Shown here one piece after another: positions 54,418-64,000 of a DNA stretch of 64,000 bases. Both the position numbers and the translations under genes were made by a program. Source of the stretch: an uncultured candidate division Zixibacteria bacterium. Lineage in GTDB: Bacteria > Zixibacteria > MSB-5A5 > GN15 > FEB-12. The stretch's first letter is position 1. Every line of letters starts with the position of its first letter. The notes beneath the pieces are model-generated. The model saw only the letters and a program-made list of their open reading frames with translations. It ran no database searches and was not told where the DNA came from. Location of the stretch: assembly GCA_963806185.1 (NCBI GenBank), contig CAWDXE010000004.1, positions 128,001-192,000 of the forward strand, given 5' to 3'.

Positions 54418-55740
54418 CTATTGACAATTGGGTAGCGGGGTGAACGAAATGAAAAGATTGTAAATCAGCTCCGTCAAATCGCCAATATCGATGCCCCCTG
54501 TTACATCGCAATTCGCTTCCTGTTCGCAGCAGAGGGGAGAGAAGGAACCAAACAGGTTGTCGATCAACCTCGTGAGATCGCCGATATCGACGCTAGTATC
54601 GCAATTGACATCTCCGACCTCACCCACACAGCAGGTATCACACTGATCGGCGATTGGCGAACTCGGCCATTCAATTGTCGTCCCACTCGGCGGATTTACC
54701 GGCGGGCCGTCCCAAACACCCGTGCCCCCCATCCAATGTGAACCAGGTTGGCGGATGAAATAACCGCCCAGAAAGAGCCGATTATCAAAGACCTTCACGG
54801 CTTCAATATAGTCGTACGCGAACGCTTCGCTCGCTGGTACATCACGCCAGTTCATGCCGTCCCAGTGGACAACCTGTGTCAGGGTCGGATCTGATGGTGA
54901 CGAAATGTACCCCGCCACCACAAGTCCGCCGGCAAATGCCTCCATGGTGAATATCGGCCCGATGAGAGGAGAGCCTAGCCCCGACCAGCTCAGGCCGTCC
55001 CATGCCGCCACTCGGCCCACACACTGATCTGCAAAAGTTATCCGCCCTCCGGCGATCAACCTGCCGGCGATTTCTGCGAAACAAGCAACCGAACCCCGAA
55101 ATTCCGTGCCTACCATCTGCCACTGGGAACCGTCCCAGCGGCGCACGCCGAAGTCGCCACCGACAAACAGTTCGTCCCCGTACACCGTCAGCGCACTTAC
55201 CATTCCTGAAAATGTGCCGCCAAGCGTCGTCCAGGAGACGCCATCCCACTTCACTACGTAATTCTCCCAAGTTGAGCCGATCTTGAAGTATCCCCCGGCA
55301 ATGAGGTCACCGTGGAAATCTGCAAGCGCGTCCACGGACCCGTCCATATCGGCGGGAAATGGAACAAATCCCGCTCCGTCGAAAGTCACTATGTACCGGT
55401 AGCCCGTTTGCCCTGGGAAATTAAAATACCCCCCCACCGTTAACACCCCGTTATAGCTGGTAATCGATTTGACGCTCACTGCCTCCGGGCCGCCCAGCGG
55501 TTGCCACCCGGATCCCGTCCATTTGGCAAGAGGATTAGGCTGATGTCCAGTGTAGGCTGCCCCGGCGTACAACTCGCCGTTGTGAACGTAATAACAGACC
55601 GTCGTACGCGTCGAATCAAACTGAAGCGCCGACGGCTGAACCAGGGTCGGCTGCGTCCGGCCAGTAACACCAGCCAGGAGCATACAAAGTATGATCACTC
55701 CCCACCAGCCGCTCCGCCATCGTCCCTGCGTTGTTGCCAT
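54418..55740 (-). CDS. Secreted beta-propeller-like repeat protein with a C-terminal dockerin-like domain
   Basis: Repeats of L-AGG-F...WDG-W-LG; tail CCVG-GDVNCD and duplicated DIGDLT-LI-NLF-SF-PL. Confidence 0.8.
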   Translation of the reverse strand: MATTQGRWRSGWWGVIILCMLLAGVTGRTQPTLVQPSALQFDSTRTTVCYYVHNGELYAGAAYTGHQPNPLAKWTGSGWQPLGGPEAVSVKSITSYNGVLTVGGYFNFPGQTGYRYIVTFDGAGFVPFPADMDGSVDALADFHGDLIAGGYFKIGSTWENYVVKWDGVSWTTLGGTFSGMVSALTVYGDELFVGGDFGVRRWDGSQWQMVGTEFRGSVACFAEIAGRLIAGGRITFADQCVGRVAAWDGLSWSGLGSPLIGPIFTMEAFAGGLVVAGYISSPSDPTLTQVVHWDGMNWRDVPASEAFAYDYIEAVKVFDNRLFLGGYFIRQPGSHWMGGTGVWDGPPVNPPSGTTIEWPSSPIADQCDTCCVGEVGDVNCDTSVDIGDLTRLIDNLFGSFSPLCCEQEANCDVTGGIDIGDLTELIYNLFISFTPLPNCQ

Positions 55741-57769: not shown

Positions 57770-60079
57770 ATGGCTGCGCCTCCAAAACTGCGTTCGGATT
57801 TGATTACCGTACCGTCCACAGTCGACCAAGCGACTGTCTATACGATTAAGGATCCGATCACCGGCAAGTACTTTCGTCTGCGCGAACCGGAATTCTGGCT
57901 CATTTCGCAATTCGACGGACAATCTGAGGCGGACGAATTGGCGAAACGATTTCGCGAGCAGTTCGACGCCAACATCGCCGCCGATCAGGTCAATCAGTTT
58001 GTCACGATCCTGGAAGATCTCCTATTCCTGGAGAACACGCACAGCGAGCAGGGAATTTCCCGCCAAGCTTACCGGAACCAGATGGCGCGGTCGCGGCTGT
58101 CCCAGTTGCTCTACATGCCGCTGACCTCATTCGCTCCGGGGCGGATCCTTGATGTGGCAGTGCGGCTGTATCGCCCGCTTCACTCTCGACTCTGGTTTGC
58201 GGTGTCGCTGCTTGGGCTCATCCTCGCGGCATGGGTGCTGGGTGAGAACCGGAGTTCGTTTGCCATCGATCCCCGAACGCTGATTTCATGGAACACTCTC
58301 ATCACCCTGGTGGCGGCAATTTTCATCATGGGAGTGTTTCACGAAATGGCGCACGCCGTGGTTTGTCGTTATTACGGGGGTGACGTGCGACGCATGGGTT
58401 TCTTCCTGCTGTATTTTCAACCCTGCTTCTACTGCGACATTTCCGACGCCTGGCTCTTCCCCAAGCGGAGTCAGCGTCTCCTGGTGACACTCGCCGGACC
58501 GTATTGCCAGGCGTTGTTGACCGGCGCCGCGATCCTGCTGTGGCGAATCACCCAACCGGAGACCTGGATCAATTCGCTGGTCTGGATGACGGCGTTGATC
58601 TCGCTCGTTACGTTGCTATTCAACCTCAATCCTTTGATAAAGCTCGATGGCTATTACCTGTTGTCGGATTGGATGGAGGTCCCCAATCTGCGGCAAAAGG
58701 CATTCCGGTACCTGGGCAATGTCTTTAAACGCTGGGCGCTCGGCTGGCCAATTGAGCGGATTGACGTGACCGCGCGCGAGCGAAGGATATTTCTGATTTA
58801 TGCGGTTCTGGCGCTGATTTATTCGGCATTTCTGATCGGTTACTCGGCAATGTTTCTGGGTAGACTGGTTTTCCTGTACCTCGGCGGAGCGGGATTGCTG
58901 TTGTTGATTGGTGTCGTTCTGTTTATGTTACGACGGGAACTGGGACGCCTGGCCAAAGGGATTTTGCGGCACCTGGGGTATATGAAGACTTTGCTCGCGC
59001 ATCCAATACGTCTGACAGTCTATATCATTCTGACGATTGCGTTGATCGTCGTCTGCTTCATTGTCAAGTTCCCGCATCGAGTCGCCGGTGAGGTGACAGT
59101 CGCTCCGCTGCGCGAGTTCAGTGTAGGCATCAATCAACTTGGCTATCTGGAGAGCACGTACCGGCAGGGGGGAGAACATCCGGAAAACAAATCGTGGCTG
59201 ACAAAGATGGAATCGTCCGATGTCTTGGCGATTGAACTGAAGCCCATGGTCAATGACGGTCAGCACGTTAAGGCGGGAGACACGATTGCGATCGCCGTAT
59301 CCAACCTGATGGCGAAGGACCTCGAGTCTTCAGAGGCCGAATTACAGCGTCTTGAGGGAGAACTCGCGCTTCTGAAGGCGCCACCCAAGCGGGAACGGGT
59401 GGAGGAAGCACGCGCTCTCGTCAACAGTGCCCGCACCGCGCTCGATCAGCGTCAACGCGAATACAAACGCGTACAGCAATTGGTGGACCGTAAGCTGGGT
59501 ACACAGGAACAACTCGAGGGGGCTAAGTCGGCGGTCGACATCGCCGAAGCCGAAATGGCTAATCGAAAGTCGACTCTGGCACTCGTGGAGTCACCGCCCC
59601 GTCCGGAAGAAGAGGCCGTGCTTCAACACGCCATCGCCAAACAACAATCTCAAATCCAATATCTTCGCAGTCAGGCGGCAGCGCAGATTATTGCGGCGCC
59701 GATCGACGGAACGGTGCGTTCCCGATTGATTGACACCAAACTGCTGGTGATCGCGGACGGCGCGACCATTGAAGCGCAGGTACCTGTGACAGATATTGAC
59801 ATCCCACTCGTCTCATTGCGGCAGAAAGTGTCACTCAAGGTGCGCGCGTATCCGTCGATGGTTTTTGAGGGGGAAGTTGCCGCGTTGCCGGAAGTAGGCG
59901 TTGAAAAAGATAAGCAGATGATCTTTCCGGTGACGGCCACGTTCAAAAATGGCAGTGCACTGCTCCAACAGGGGATGAGTGGTTATGCCAAGATCGAAGT
60001 TGGCACGGCGACGCTGGCCGCGCGGTTGTGGCGTAAGTTACGATCCCTCATACGAGTAGAGTTCTGGTCCTGGTGGTAG
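57770..60079 (+). CDS. RRE(PqqD-like)-M50 intramembrane peptidase-HlyD membrane fusion protein hybrid
   Basis: N-terminal PKLRSDL...KDPITGKYFRL...FDG helical bundle; HEMAH, AGP and NLNPLIKLDGYY; C-terminal lipoyl/coiled-coil/APIDGTV/GMSGYAKI adaptor pattern. Confidence 0.85.
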   Translation: MAAPPKLRSDLITVPSTVDQATVYTIKDPITGKYFRLREPEFWLISQFDGQSEADELAKRFREQFDANIAADQVNQFVTILEDLLFLENTHSEQGISRQAYRNQMARSRLSQLLYMPLTSFAPGRILDVAVRLYRPLHSRLWFAVSLLGLILAAWVLGENRSSFAIDPRTLISWNTLITLVAAIFIMGVFHEMAHAVVCRYYGGDVRRMGFFLLYFQPCFYCDISDAWLFPKRSQRLLVTLAGPYCQALLTGAAILLWRITQPETWINSLVWMTALISLVTLLFNLNPLIKLDGYYLLSDWMEVPNLRQKAFRYLGNVFKRWALGWPIERIDVTARERRIFLIYAVLALIYSAFLIGYSAMFLGRLVFLYLGGAGLLLLIGVVLFMLRRELGRLAKGILRHLGYMKTLLAHPIRLTVYIILTIALIVVCFIVKFPHRVAGEVTVAPLREFSVGINQLGYLESTYRQGGEHPENKSWLTKMESSDVLAIELKPMVNDGQHVKAGDTIAIAVSNLMAKDLESSEAELQRLEGELALLKAPPKRERVEEARALVNSARTALDQRQREYKRVQQLVDRKLGTQEQLEGAKSAVDIAEAEMANRKSTLALVESPPRPEEEAVLQHAIAKQQSQIQYLRSQAAAQIIAAPIDGTVRSRLIDTKLLVIADGATIEAQVPVTDIDIPLVSLRQKVSLKVRAYPSMVFEGEVAALPEVGVEKDKQMIFPVTATFKNGSALLQQGMSGYAKIEVGTATLAARLWRKLRSLIRVEFWSWW

Positions 60080-60248
60080 GCCGGATGTAATAGTCGGCAG
60101 CAGTCGCGCACAGCACCGGCAAGTTTTGCATACCACTTTCACATAATCTCACCACATTTTCGATCAATCGCACTCGAATTTTTTTCCTGTGCGGCAAAGT
60201 TTTCCGATAATACTACCCCTAGATAAACATGGACAATGCTCATTTCTC

Positions 60249-60276
60249 TTGACGTGTGGCGGGCCGCTCGTATTTT
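60249..60276 (+). promoter_or_regulatory. Sigma70-like promoter for the small peptide gene
   Basis: TTGACG-16 nt-TATTTT, about 100 nt upstream of the peptide ATG. Confidence 0.5.
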
Positions 60277-60379
60277 ATGAGTACATGCCTCCGCAGAGGC
60301 AGCACACACATCTGTAAATTACACACACACTCCTCCCGATGGGCGGGAGGGAGAGTACGTACATGAAGGAGGTGAATGA

Positions 60380-60457
60380 ATGAAAGACTACAAACTAACC
60401 GTAGAAGTCCTGGAGGAGCGCATCGCTCCGGGTATGAGCCTGGGCGGCCAGGGTTGA
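60380..60457 (+). CDS. Putative precursor peptide MKDYKLTVEVLEERIAPGMSLGGQG (25 aa)
   Basis: Full-length SD AAGGAGGTGA directly upstream; LEERIAP leader-like motif; own promoter and terminator; adjacent to the RRE-peptidase. Confidence 0.8.
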   Translation: MKDYKLTVEVLEERIAPGMSLGGQG

Positions 60458-60481
60458 TCTGACGGTTTCGTCTGATGAATC

Positions 60482-60511
60482 AAAGGGCAGGTTATCCTGC
60501 CCTTTCCTTTT
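60482..60511 (+). terminator. Intrinsic terminator after the peptide gene (may be bidirectional)
   Basis: Perfect 10-bp stem aaagggcagg-ttat-cctgcccttt followed by cctttt. Confidence 0.8.
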
Positions 60512-63476
60512 TCGCCAAGATCGTTCCCAGCCGCCCAATCATCGCCGCCAATCGTTGTATGTGTCGCGTCTTTTGAAAACTGATCTGCGTCGCCTGATCA
60601 GTACCAGTCAACATCTGCTTGCTCAATTCGAGCGCCTTTCGGCAAAGCTGATAGCACGTTTCGTAGTCACTCTGACCAAAGAGAATCTCCGCACGCAGGA
60701 TCGACGACGATATCATTTCCGGCAGCAAGCCAGTATCGCGGGCCTCGCCGGACGCCCGGATCAGATACTCCGACGCCGGTTCGAGTTCACCAAGCCGTAA
60801 TTTCAATTCGCCCAACGAAAGCAGCGAGCGCGTAGAATCAATATGGCGCGGTGCGTTTTTCTCAGCGTTGATGAAAGAAGTCAGTCGGGGCGCAAGCGCT
60901 GTTGCCTCCGACAGGTCGTGTCGAGCGAGCGCCGATTCCATCTTTTCTATCGCAAGCGTCGAGCCAAAGTCCTTTACCTGGAGTTGTTCCGCGAGGGAGT
61001 ACGCTTCGGATTCTTCTGCCGGGGTGAAGTCGATCCTGGCTAGCGTGGTAAGGAGCGCCAATCGAGCGGGCGCCAGGCCAACGATTTCCTTTTCTTCCAT
61101 GGCGGCGCGGAGCAAGGCGGCGGCTTCAGCCGGCCGACCGAGCAGATACTGCAGTTCAGCTCGCAGTCTATAGAGGTATGCACGGATCTCTCCGTCGGAA
61201 ATCCCATTCAAGTGTCCTAGTGCGTCGTCGGCGGCTTGCAGCGCCTCGCGAATCTGACCCATGCGCACTAGAACCTGTCCCGTTTGCGTCGTAAAGGCTG
61301 CGAGGTGTGAGAGGTCACTCAAATCGAGCGCGAGACGGACGCCTTCCTTAAGATAGGCGAGGCAATCGGACAACCTGGCTGACCGGAGCATGACCAGTCC
61401 GAGGTTGTCGAGATTGAAGAGAATTTCCTTCTGATTGCCGATTTCGCGATTGAGCGCCAGCGATTCGGTGAGGTATTCGAGTGCTTCCCGGTGATATCCC
61501 TGATTATGAGCGAGGTAGCCCAGATTATTCAGCGTGCGGGCGATTTCACCTCTATCCCCGAGTTCACGTTTCAGTTTTAACGAGAGAACCATGACGGCCA
61601 GGGCGCGATCGGCGTTCCCGAGGAAGTAATATACGACGCCGAGATTCGTTACGGTAGAGGCGACATCGCGCTTGAGAGCGAGGCGGCGCTGAACGTGCAA
61701 GGCTCGACGGTAGTAACTGAGCGCCTTGCGGAAGTCGCCGGTCATCGAATGGACATTACCGAGATTGTTCGTTACATGCGATATCTCAAGACTGTTGCCC
61801 AGTCGTGTGAATATTTCCAGAGCCTTTTCGAGCGCGGTCACACCCGGCTGAAAGAGCCGTTTTGCCTTGTAGATATCGCCGAGCAGGTTGTAGGCGCGCG
61901 CGATCAGATAGTCGGGTCCGGAGTTGTTTCCGGTGATTTCCAAAAAAGCATGTTCGGCAAGCTCCGATTCGCCGGCGTCTTTGTGGATTTCGCCATGCTC
62001 GAGGAAAAGCCGGCAGACGGCCTCTGGTGATCGAGTCATGCGGCCATAGTCGATGCAGAAGTGGAGCAGCGCCTGCGCCTCGGCAAATTGATGCTTCTCT
62101 CGATACTGTTTAACCGCAGCCAGGGCACAACGTTCAGCGGATGCAAAATCACCGGTCTGGATATAGAGGCGCGCGGCATCATCGAAGGTTGATTGGCTCT
62201 CGCGATCGGCGGCCAGCTTACGTGATAGGCGCTTTATCGTTGTAACCGTCAACATGCCGCTGAACAAGTAGGAGGACAGCATGTCGGCATGGTCCGTGAG
62301 TTCATCGGGTGTCAACTGGGCACCGGCCGCGAGGATGACGGCGTTTCGTACGTCCGACTTGCGCCTTGCGAGAACTTGTCCGCGCCAGGCCTGGCTGACC
62401 TGCCGGCGAATGATTGACGGCCAGTACACGCCATTCGGAAAACGGAAGGAGGCGTTGTCGTAGGTGAGCATTCCGCGGCGCCAGTTGGCGGTGAGAATCA
62501 GTCTGGCGCTGGCAAGGCTTTCACCGGAGAGCATGAGGAAGCGTTTCATATCCCGGGCCGAGCTTGAGATGGGGCGTTCGCTGAGAGCCGCGACTGTCGA
62601 TTGTGCGGGGATCATGTGCTTTGGCTGCAGAGCCCGTTCGTAGGGATAGGACACACCGAGCTGACGCAGGCGGCTGCAAATCTCCCACCCGGATTGCGGT
62701 CGGTGGGCGGGGTCTTTGGCCATCAGTCTGCGCTACCAGATCGGACAGTTCTTCGCTCACGTCGGCTCGCAATGACGACAGCGGCGACGGATTGTCGAGA
62801 CGCACGCGGCTGGAGACCTCGACAGGGTCGGCGCCGTCCTTAAGAAATGGATGCGAACCGGATAGCATCATGTAGGCAGTGACACCCAGAGCAAAGAGAT
62901 CGGACTGATAGGAAGTATGGTTTCGGCCAGTGTTTCCGGCGCTATGTAGCCGATGGTGCCGAGACCGGCGCGAGTATCGTCTTCACTCGGTTTGCGGCCG
63001 AGGGAGAAGTCGGAGAATTTGACCCAGTGCAGATGACCGTCGTTGAGGTGTCGCCAGTCGACAGGCAGGAAGACGTTTTGCGGTTTGAAGTCGCCGTGAA
63101 TGATTCCTGCAGCGCGCAGGAACTCAAGGTCGAGTGCGATGGCCGAAATGATCGAACAGGCGACGTCTACGTCATCGAACGGCCGATCGAGTCCAGCGTC
63201 GGACCGGGGCAGAGTTCGAGTAACAGATAGTTGCCGGCAGTTCTCATGTTCCAGGATTCGTACCAGGCCGGGAAAGGCGTAAGACCGCCGATGAGCGTTT
63301 GTTCGCGGAGAGCGAGATGGTGAATTTCGGGCGGGAGAGTGTCGGAAATCGAGCGGATACTTAAGCGCCGCGTCACGATTCAGGTGAGGCGCGAAGACCC
63401 GCACAACTTCTGCCGTCCCCCCGCGACCGAGCCGGTCCTTGATTTGAAACCGGGACTGATCGAACGTCCTGTTCAT
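60492..63476 (-). CDS. Ser/Thr protein kinase with C-terminal TPR array (several indels in the kinase part)
   Basis: LGRGGTAEV, AALK, HGDFKPQN, SDFSLG, GTIGYIAPE and HPF...KDP-RP across frames; repeated NNLG/NLG TPR units. Confidence 0.8.
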
Positions 63477-63484
63477 AATTCCTA

Positions 63485-64000
63485 TTACGCCTGACGTAGT
63501 CTGGTGAACCCGCGGCAGAATCAGGCGGAAGGTCGTGCCTTCGACCGGCGATCGACGAAACTTCCAGCTTTGCCGCCGTGCTGTTCGACAATCTTCCGGC
63601 AGTTGTACAAGCCGAGCCCGTGACCACCCTTCTTGGTGGTGAAGTGCAGGGTGAAGATCCGATCGAGTACTTCCTTGGGCATGCCGCAACCGTTGTCGGA
63701 ATCTCGACGAGATTTGATCGGCGTGCTGGTCATGGCGCCGGCGTTGATCGAAATCTGCCGGTGGAACTTCCTGATTCGGGTCGGGCAACTGCGCTGACCC
63801 GGTCGCCGATGGCGTCGGCGGCGTTATTGAGCAGGTTGATCATGCACCTGCTGTATCTGGCCGACGTCGATTTCGGCGGTTGGCAATTCGGGCGGCAGAT
63901 TGATGTTGAAATTGCACCAGCTTGAAACTCGGCTGGATGCGCAGCGAGAAACAGCAGGTCATCGATGAGGTGCTTGAGTCGTAGCTGACGAATTCCGACT
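63485..64000 (-). CDS. C-terminal HATPase_c domain of a sensor histidine kinase (partial, indel-ridden)
   Basis: INLLNNAADA (N box), DNGCGM (G1), IF-FTTKKGGHGLGL (F/G2) and GTTFRLILP across frames. Confidence 0.75.

Follow-up and report, generated by a model that had tools for sequence, protein, structure and literature searches.

A candidate peptide signalling circuit in Zixibacteria built from a protease-adaptor fusion, a 25-residue precursor and a kinase-TPR sensor

Introduction

What would a bacterium with two membranes do with an intramembrane protease that carries both a putative leader-binding domain and an export adaptor, and that is encoded directly upstream of a gene for a peptide of only 25 residues? 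The question is raised by a locus in a stretch of 64,000 nucleotides (hereafter the window; contig CAWDXE010000004.1, positions 128,001 to 192,000) from an uncultured bacterium of the candidate division Zixibacteria. The upstream gene encodes a fusion of a recognition element for peptides that are made by the ribosome and modified after translation (RiPPs), abbreviated RRE, with an M50 site-2 protease and a periplasmic adaptor. A third gene, for a Ser/Thr kinase with a degenerate STAND NTPase and tetratricopeptide repeats (TPRs), converges on the peptide gene from the other strand. Here we show that the three genes have a common evolutionary fate, and we suggest that the trio is likely an undescribed peptide signalling circuit in two-membrane bacteria. 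Gram-positive bacteria are known to use peptides as signals that act on TPR receptors in the cytoplasm. If the proposal is true, peptide signalling distributed over a whole two-membrane phylum, in which a kinase-STAND-TPR receptor has a histidine kinase as its output, would be new and would supply a ligand to orphan multidomain sensors, which form a large class. No description of the trio was found in the open-access literature, supplements aside, although the RRE family tables of the daptide preprint discussed below could list the fusion family.

Results

The evidence that the three genes belong together comes from 285 Zixibacteria genomes profiled for fusion, peptide and kinase, many of them fragmented assemblies and, as kin, not independent of one another. 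Fusion matches occur in 239 of these genomes. All three genes are present in 216 and none in 36, leaving 33 genomes with other combinations (12 without the kinase only, 8 without the peptide only, 4 without the fusion only and 9 with a single gene; some of the 12 may carry a kinase that falls under the strict E-value threshold). Since 35 of the 36 genomes devoid of the trio do have the neighbouring phosphatase gene, the joint absence is specific and not the result of poor assembly. Peptide, fusion and kinase have been gained and lost jointly across the phylum. The gene order adds to this. Among 129 peptide genes examined, 122 have at least 3.5 kb of sequence downstream, and 96 of the 122 face a convergent kinase gene, 70 with the fusion also upstream and 26 without it; a further 18 are accompanied by the fusion only (14 of them tandem copies of the type found in genus g23) and 8 by neither. 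The peptide gene stays tail-to-tail with the kinase gene where the fusion has moved. A system of just two genes, as the preliminary description had it, is thus not borne out, the peptide being tied tighter to the kinase-TPR gene than to the fusion. The accompanying claim that neither a tailoring enzyme nor an ATP-binding cassette (ABC) transporter lies adjacent stands for the transporter, of which there is none at the locus beside the fusion or peptide gene, and calls for correction as regards enzymes, the adjoining gene having a kinase domain. Across 61 loci (up to 20 kb; 33 representatives annotated), the conserved neighbours are signalling and housekeeping genes, and the kinase-TPR gene, present in 31 of the 61, is the commonest near neighbour after histidine kinases. 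In some families (L163, L166 and L168) a peptide copy does not face the kinase but has the same orientation as a sigma-54 activator-like gene (~790 aa), just 5' of which it lies.

The gene adjacent to the kinase-TPR gene encodes a GAF-PAS histidine kinase that has decayed where the kinase was lost in several lineages. The H-box HELNN is present in 33 of 33 kinase-bearing genomes. Within family f1, the genomes without the kinase have lost the H-box His or the following Glu in 14 of 17 histidine kinases and most of the GAF domain in 7 of 17 (an 18th genome gave no match in the stretch fetched). The identity of the f1 GAF domain to an outgroup drops from 0.58 with the kinase to 0.24 without it, compared to 0.30 and 0.32, respectively, for Omp85 used as a control neighbour; in family f4 the GAF identity falls from 0.70 to 0.47 on kinase loss. 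In a quick tree of 52 Omp85 proteins the kinase label changes 7 times, with at least 6 of the changes forced by well-supported branches. Because the adjacent histidine kinase decays upon kinase loss and the control does not, the kinase-TPR protein seems to be a sensor rather than a tailoring enzyme. In its behaviour it resembles the input part of a multidomain sensor divided between two genes, and the histidine kinase is its likely output. A 1376-aa frame elsewhere in the same genome (C1:418744-422871, minus strand) has kinase, TPR and a related GAF domain in one polypeptide; among longer fused forms of the histidine kinase, 0 of 9 matches had a kinase domain, a count of little evidential weight. 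Loci L298-L310, from several lineages, retain the histidine kinase as an apparent pseudokinase after loss of the kinase-TPR gene, the H-box His/Glu being replaced and the GAF domain lost or decayed.

The 25-codon open reading frame (ORF) is a real gene that has a strong promoter of its own, with promoter, Shine-Dalgarno sequence, terminator and codon pattern all conserved (Table 1). These expression signals had been claimed for it beforehand; all were confirmed, and the ORF proved to be conserved and to co-occur with the fusion in relatives. Although the promoter scan by itself performed at chance (2 found vs 2.0 expected), the call is confirmed because a sigma-70 motif recurs 5' of 81 of 117 peptide genes (the g23 core type excluded), compared to 1.96 in shuffles. 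A terminator-like hairpin lies 3' of 93 of 132 peptide genes, compared to 0.35 in shuffles. For the 132 distinct peptide genes, differences amount to 0.29 and 0.21 at the first and second codon position and to 0.64 at the third, and close pairs show 1612 synonymous vs 659 non-synonymous codon differences; the 132 genes were picked by the leader pattern, so invariance of that pattern's own residues is by construction. A profile made from 61 of the peptides matches 233 of the 285 genomes. Scanning of the intergenic DNA near homologous fusions, proposed in the preliminary description as a check, revealed the leader motif 3' of the fusion in 26 of 29 relatives' loci and a variant of it in a 27th, the remaining two having 96 bases of flank only in one case and the peptide elsewhere in the other; ORFs with LExR leaders also adjoin distant fusions. 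The search of this genome for further LEERIAP peptides, likewise proposed, returned none by profile, and the peptide gene is present in one copy.

The leader consensus is LE(A/E)(R/K)(I/V)AP, and the cores mostly end in GGQ or in a Gly-rich tail. Among 117 peptides there are 83 different first-8 cores, all the variation being within one motif, and Ser occupies one of the core positions 2-5 in 112 of the 117, encoded by both AGY and TCN codons. The exact 25-aa peptide was not found in the protein collection, and three of seven peptides looked up are present there as 'hypothetical protein' or unnamed. Comparison of the 61 members to NCBIfam gave one weak match each to NF033737 (E 0.019), NF012209 (E 0.13) and NF033456 (E 0.58). 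Five RNA-library contigs from four runs of four studies, four of them at least 99% identical, all fall within the short interval listed in Table 1, with none in the flanks of the 801 bases compared, and they provide a hint of a separate peptide transcript. These contigs show neither strand nor level, the comparison covered 4 of the 6 runs with matches, and DNA contamination of the libraries is excluded solely by the empty flanks of the 801-base stretch. The 5' leader of the peptide gene contains an inverted repeat (60330-60355) directly before the Shine-Dalgarno sequence, and a hairpin of differing sequence is seen by eye at this site in many relatives.

The fusion was confirmed as the three-domain protein it had been claimed to be. 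It is encoded by a single gene, no second fusion having been found in this genome, and its close homologues are also about 769 aa long. Pfam identifies the M50 domain (6e-10) and HlyD families (about 0.002). The N-terminal PqqD match (residues 28-83) has little strength at the sequence level (E 0.018, short of the Pfam cut-off) and is the sole PqqD match of the whole genome, and a search with the RRE sequence against solved structures returned nothing significant. In the structure model built from 41 homologues (mean pLDDT 82.7), however, residues 3-89 adopt the order of three strands followed by three helices and match the lasso-peptide RREs 6jx3 (Z 10.5, rmsd 2.4, 83/85 residues) and 5v1u (Z 9.9), thus bearing out the RRE assignment by fold. 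The protease part of the model matches SpoIVFB (Z 10.7) and RseP (Z 10.2), and both active-site motifs are intact in all 41 aligned homologues. The C-terminal part resembles the EmrA and MacA adaptors.

The kinase-TPR gene is split in this assembly by four frame switches in its 5' third, while relatives have it intact. Several frame switches affect consecutive genes over C4:190800-194000 (window 62700-64000 and beyond), which points to a stretch of low assembly quality. The breaks in the kinase gene and in the next gene, that of the histidine kinase, are probably sequencing or assembly errors, since both genes are in pieces here and relatives are intact. The catalytic residues K39, D130, K132, N135 and D157 are invariant in a 49-row alignment (21 rows chosen by catalytic motif, 28 not). 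A relative's model (pLDDT 92.3) shows a PknB-like N-terminal kinase domain and a TPR part with the fold of the TPRs by which LGN/Pins bind peptides. Invariant Asn residues are retained in this TPR part. The AAA_16 NTPase is kept in the long members (two scanned), and Walker A was not seen in the members of 1000 aa. Complex prediction for a relative's kinase-TPR protein (residues 1-965) with its 31-aa precursor gave a score of 0.01 and a mark of 0.32, values that weigh neither for nor against the pairing.

Table 1. Features of the locus, in window coordinates
Feature	Position	Strand	Remark
RRE-M50 site-2 protease-periplasmic adaptor fusion	57770..60079	+	769 aa from ATG
RRE domain, residues 3-89	57776..58036	+	model matches lasso RREs
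HExxH zinc motif (HEMAH) at residue 191	58340..58354	+	H191, E192, H195 invariant 41/41
NxxPxxxxDG site-2 protease motif (NLNPLIKLDG) at residue 285	58622..58651	+	invariant alignment columns
Membrane-fusion-protein (adaptor) domain, residues 433-745	59066..60004	+	EmrA Z 13.9; MacA, EmrA best Foldseek rows
Sigma-70-type promoter of peptide gene	60249..60276	+	promoter scan and relatives
RNA-library contig stretch, matching a monocistronic peptide transcript	60295..60485	+	short contigs
Shine-Dalgarno sequence AAGGAGGTGA	60366..60375	+	AGGAGGT in 110/132 relatives' peptide genes
Precursor peptide gene, 25 aa, MKDYKLTVEVLEERIAPGMSLGGQG	60380..60457	+	conservation, profile, codon pattern
Predicted leader	60380-60430	+	
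Predicted core GMSLGGQG	60431-60454	+	
Intrinsic terminator	60482-60505 or up to 60512	+	overlaps stop codon of convergent kinase gene
Ser/Thr kinase - degenerate STAND NTPase - TPR sensor	60492..63476	-	about 1000 aa in relatives
GAF-PAS histidine kinase gene, 3' end	63504..64000	-	continues beyond window, in pieces

Discussion

Based on the linkage and domain composition of the three genes, we propose a circuit in which the peptide, judged from linkage and co-loss, would be the ligand of the kinase-TPR protein. The RRE of the fusion would bind the precursor leader, the membrane protease would cut after Ala-Pro, as suggested by the daptide register, and the short core would be passed through the fused adaptor to a TolC encoded elsewhere (this genome has several TolC genes, none beside the fusion). 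In the cytoplasm, the TPR part of the kinase-TPR protein would sense the peptide, and the protein would control the adjacent histidine kinase. In such an arrangement the peptide would be made constitutively and the fusion would act as the drain that sets its cytoplasmic level, so that anything slowing the drain, be it the envelope state, TolC docking or a build-up of core outside, would raise the signal. This form of the circuit is favoured because the module is without a motor and most genomes are without an Opp importer; we give it a little less than an even chance, while a signalling role in one of two forms, the drain or the re-import considered below, appears reasonably probable. An extended version is somewhat unlikely as a whole. 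It would make the trio a quorum or envelope sensor without motor or importer, in which the fusion itself translocates, the exported core slows the fusion and peptide kept inside acts as the switch of a STAND-type kinase/histidine-kinase sensor split in two, the peptide representing the smallest natural cargo of a widespread putative LExR-leader route that elsewhere would move giant adhesins and modified RiPPs.

Several points weigh against the circuit. The peptide-kinase link rests on synteny and co-loss, and the decay of the histidine kinase ties the kinase to the histidine kinase, not the peptide to the kinase; in f4 the H-box is intact in 3 of 3 genomes that have lost the kinase. This assembly has both the kinase gene and the histidine kinase gene in fragments. 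With one adaptor per subunit, the fusion would have to form oligomers for docking to TolC, and there is no obvious source of energy. The conserved core Ser is as a tailoring model predicts. Two genomes, G051 and G052, have cleanly lost both fusion and peptide but retain the kinase, and four have peptide and kinase with no fusion found (two of these, G072 and G170, were rechecked and are 83-84% complete). Genus g23 lacks the kinase in 5 of 5 genomes and keeps the fusion in 4 of 5, the fifth having unresolved bases at the fusion site, and it has from 1 to 7 copies of the peptide gene, in which both core and promoter are different. Retention of fusion and peptides without the kinase implies that export has a use independent of this sensor. 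The g23 cores (L034, L035, L140, L027, L186) follow the pattern S-R/K-W/Y/F-G-x-D/E, with a terminator on each tandem copy, and their promoter motif GTAAG-N13-15-CAAATA is found in 13 of 15 cases vs 0 of 117 elsewhere. These features suggest that the peptide genes have passed to the control of an alternative sigma factor and the peptides to a different receptor.

The drain is to be weighed against three other explanations. In classic quorum sensing of the Eep/RRNPP kind, the exported core would accumulate outside, be re-imported by some transporter and bind the TPR sensor. The position of the peptide gene beside that of a cytoplasmic TPR protein, the precedent of Eep for maturation by a site-2 protease, the variation of cores within one motif and an adaptor that implies export across both membranes would all be accounted for. 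The importer is the difficulty, and it makes the explanation unlikely. The Opp/Dpp-type binding protein PF00496 is limited to 8 of 108 family genomes, which do not include the present one, a rarity that argues against classic re-import. A POT/PTR2 transporter is present in this genome, yet POT transporters usually carry di- and tripeptides. The Omp85 barrel, the membrane phosphatase and the histidine kinase were considered as a dedicated channel or outer receptor and rejected; they persist without the module in 45, 51 and 50 of 52 genomes, respectively, and none is a dedicated importer by co-loss.

Alternatively, the kinase-TPR protein could be a tailoring enzyme, its TPR part holding the precursor while the core Ser is phosphorylated and the fusion then exporting a phosphopeptide RiPP. 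The core may be modified, since its Ser is conserved and the kinase opposite is catalytically intact, and the kinase is the only conserved candidate modifying enzyme for a RiPP in the strict sense. A related fusion serves a modified RiPP (locus L275, with two radical SAM genes), and TIGR03903 and NF041717, both from peptide systems, are matched by the long kinases with scores that stay below the cut-offs. Tailoring leaves the decay of the histidine kinase upon kinase-TPR loss unexplained, however, and it is at odds with G051 and G052, with the two Ser-less cores that adjoin the kinase gene (L178, L262) and with the kinase-less g23 cores that still have Ser. We regard it as quite unlikely. Least probable by our assessment is that the fusion exports an unmodified octapeptide acting outside and the kinase is merely a long-standing neighbour: g23 with its amplified peptides, the 12 genomes with fusion and peptide but no kinase match and other lineages that pair fusions with LExR-leader peptides, with no kinase of this sort on the short contigs available, would suit it, yet after rearrangement the peptide follows the kinase (26) rather than the fusion (18, of which the 14 tandem copies are of one core type), and all three genes are missing in 36 genomes while the neighbours stay.

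By the features tested, the circuit we favour is not a daptide, PCAT or RRNPP system; by analogy, it appears to combine leader removal of the daptide type with signalling of the Eep/RRNPP type, while using other parts. In daptide biosynthesis, MpaP/DapP is an RRE-fused site-2 leader peptidase and MpaA the precursor, according to the available part of the source (NF041824; 10.1101/2023.03.08.531785). As far as that part allows comparison, both systems place the RRE N-terminal to the site-2 protease and have a leader that is short and acidic, closes with Ala-Pro and carries Leu at -7 and Pro at -1, so that the daptide-type leader noted in the preliminary description is upheld. The daptide peptidase family NF041824 is indeed the top NCBIfam match of the fusion (residues 24-389), but at 229.6 bits it stays below the cut-off of 300. 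The fusion here has a C-terminal adaptor domain in addition; the leader has Arg/Lys at -4 and Ile/Val at -3 where that of daptides (ELExMEAP) has Met and Glu; and the C-terminal Thr that is invariant in the daptide precursor, as far as described, is not in the cores. Oxidative decarboxylase, aminotransferase, methyltransferase (Dmp-forming) and ABC transporters are absent from the conserved neighbours, the partner is a kinase-TPR sensor and the host has two membranes. The C39 peptidase-containing ABC transporters (PCATs) combine a Cys protease with ATP-binding domains, recognize a double-glycine leader and work with HlyD and TolC. Leader removal coupled to export via adaptor and TolC would be common to both. 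Here, in contrast, the protease is a zinc intramembrane enzyme joined to an RRE and a fused adaptor, with no motor and no C39 or ABC nucleotide-binding match in the fusion (Pfam, NCBIfam), and the conserved leader block ends in Ala-Pro, the predicted cut site, not in double-glycine.

Eep/RRNPP systems are Gram-positive and involve ABC export, Opp import and a receptor that is a transcription factor or phosphatase. Pheromones are made by the site-2 protease Eep/RseP (PMC10202637, from its available sections). Site-2 maturation of a short linear peptide and a peptide gene beside that of a cytoplasmic TPR protein, here in the 96 of 122 cases, would be the shared traits. The differences are a leader that would be read by an RRE, a fused adaptor, a kinase-STAND-TPR candidate receptor with a PknB-like kinase in place of a DNA-binding or phosphatase domain at its N-terminus, a histidine-kinase output and the absence of Opp from most genomes. 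The M50 protease EpeP/YydH of the epipeptides is thought to cleave and export its peptide (NF058609; PMC10885120, available text), and it resembles the fusion in this proposed dual role with a ribosomal peptide. The fusion scores 46 bits against that family (cut-off 225), and EpeP, as there described, lacks RRE and adaptor and acts on an epimerised antimicrobial. The series of kinase, AAA_16, TPR, GAF, HisKA and HATPase domains spread over the two adjacent genes is like that of the multidomain sensors in which kinase, AAA, TPR, GAF and histidine kinase form one polypeptide, and which we take to be of the HstK type. Unlike these, two genes were present in all loci read and the NTPase is degenerate. 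To our knowledge, a peptide ligand for HstK-type sensors has not been described.

The architecture of the fusion is not new and not unique to this locus; it belongs to a very large family. An M50/HlyD module without ABC transporter, located beside a secondary SecA_DEAD, was described by Kamneva, Poudel and Ward in 2015 (PMC4452313), who propose the M50 helices as inner-membrane pore; the accessible sections of that paper mention no RRE, leader, peptide or Zixibacteria, and we found no published test of the secretion role proposed there. Compared to that module as these sections portray it, the M50-HlyD fusion is the same and ABC transporters are likewise absent, but here the fusion stands alone, with no extra adaptors or TolC beside it, a cargo of 25 residues and, in a genome 82% complete, one SecA_DEAD gene that is not among the conserved neighbours. 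A one-protein version with a 25-residue substrate would make the question of M50-HlyD secretion testable with two genes. The fusion profile collects 5,838 representatives at E up to 1e-30. A locus scan with a single fusion protein sequence found nothing, and the scan with an alignment gave 80 loci, apparently all of the same phylum. Fifty plasmid records match the profile, and of five regions opened, three encode a giant protein together with TolC, two adaptors and the fusion but lack an ABC transporter; the giants start with an LEPR motif (NF012209, 15-16 bits; cut-off 17). The fourth region has a giant gene whose start is outside the stretch, plus SecA, and the fifth is unannotated, with the start of a large ORF outside the stretch. 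In the three LEPR regions (L263:8256-22124, L265:6150-22103, L267:9289-22103) the giant is a DUF4347/Ig protein with N-terminal LEPR, and 'tail fiber' genes are near all three.

The LEPR motif of such LEPR-XLL giant-protein operons (NF012209) is in the register of the peptide leader (Leu, Glu, x, Arg), which can also be lined up with that of daptides (Leu -7, Pro -1), and this double alignment supports the idea that the leader is read by the RRE. No LEPR-XLL protein of this genome scores over the cut-off. In the portions available, PMC8939145, 10.1101/2023.11.21.568195 and 10.64898/2026.03.19.712371 contain no mention of M50, and the last places LEPRxLL domains on giant proteins with no signal role assigned. 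For a more distant fusion, 12 of 13 metagenome loci, several of them near-duplicates, have an ORF with LExR leader upstream, mostly with Gly/Ser-rich cores. Loci L268-L274 and L276-L279 carry, directly 5' of the fusion, precursors of ~80 aa that share this leader and have long cores of Gly/Ser repeats, and L269, L272 and L273 share a conserved gene of ~300-330 aa 3' of the fusion, without Pfam or NCBIfam match. At L275:606-3523, a 45-aa precursor with LEER leader and a core of Trp, Cys, Tyr, Met and Pro, belonging to no NCBIfam family, is followed by the two radical SAM genes and then the RRE-M50 fusion. Apart from these systems, the window encodes on its minus strand (54418-55740) a beta-propeller-like secreted protein whose C-terminal domain is dockerin-like and flanked by Cys (Dockerin_1, E 0.02).

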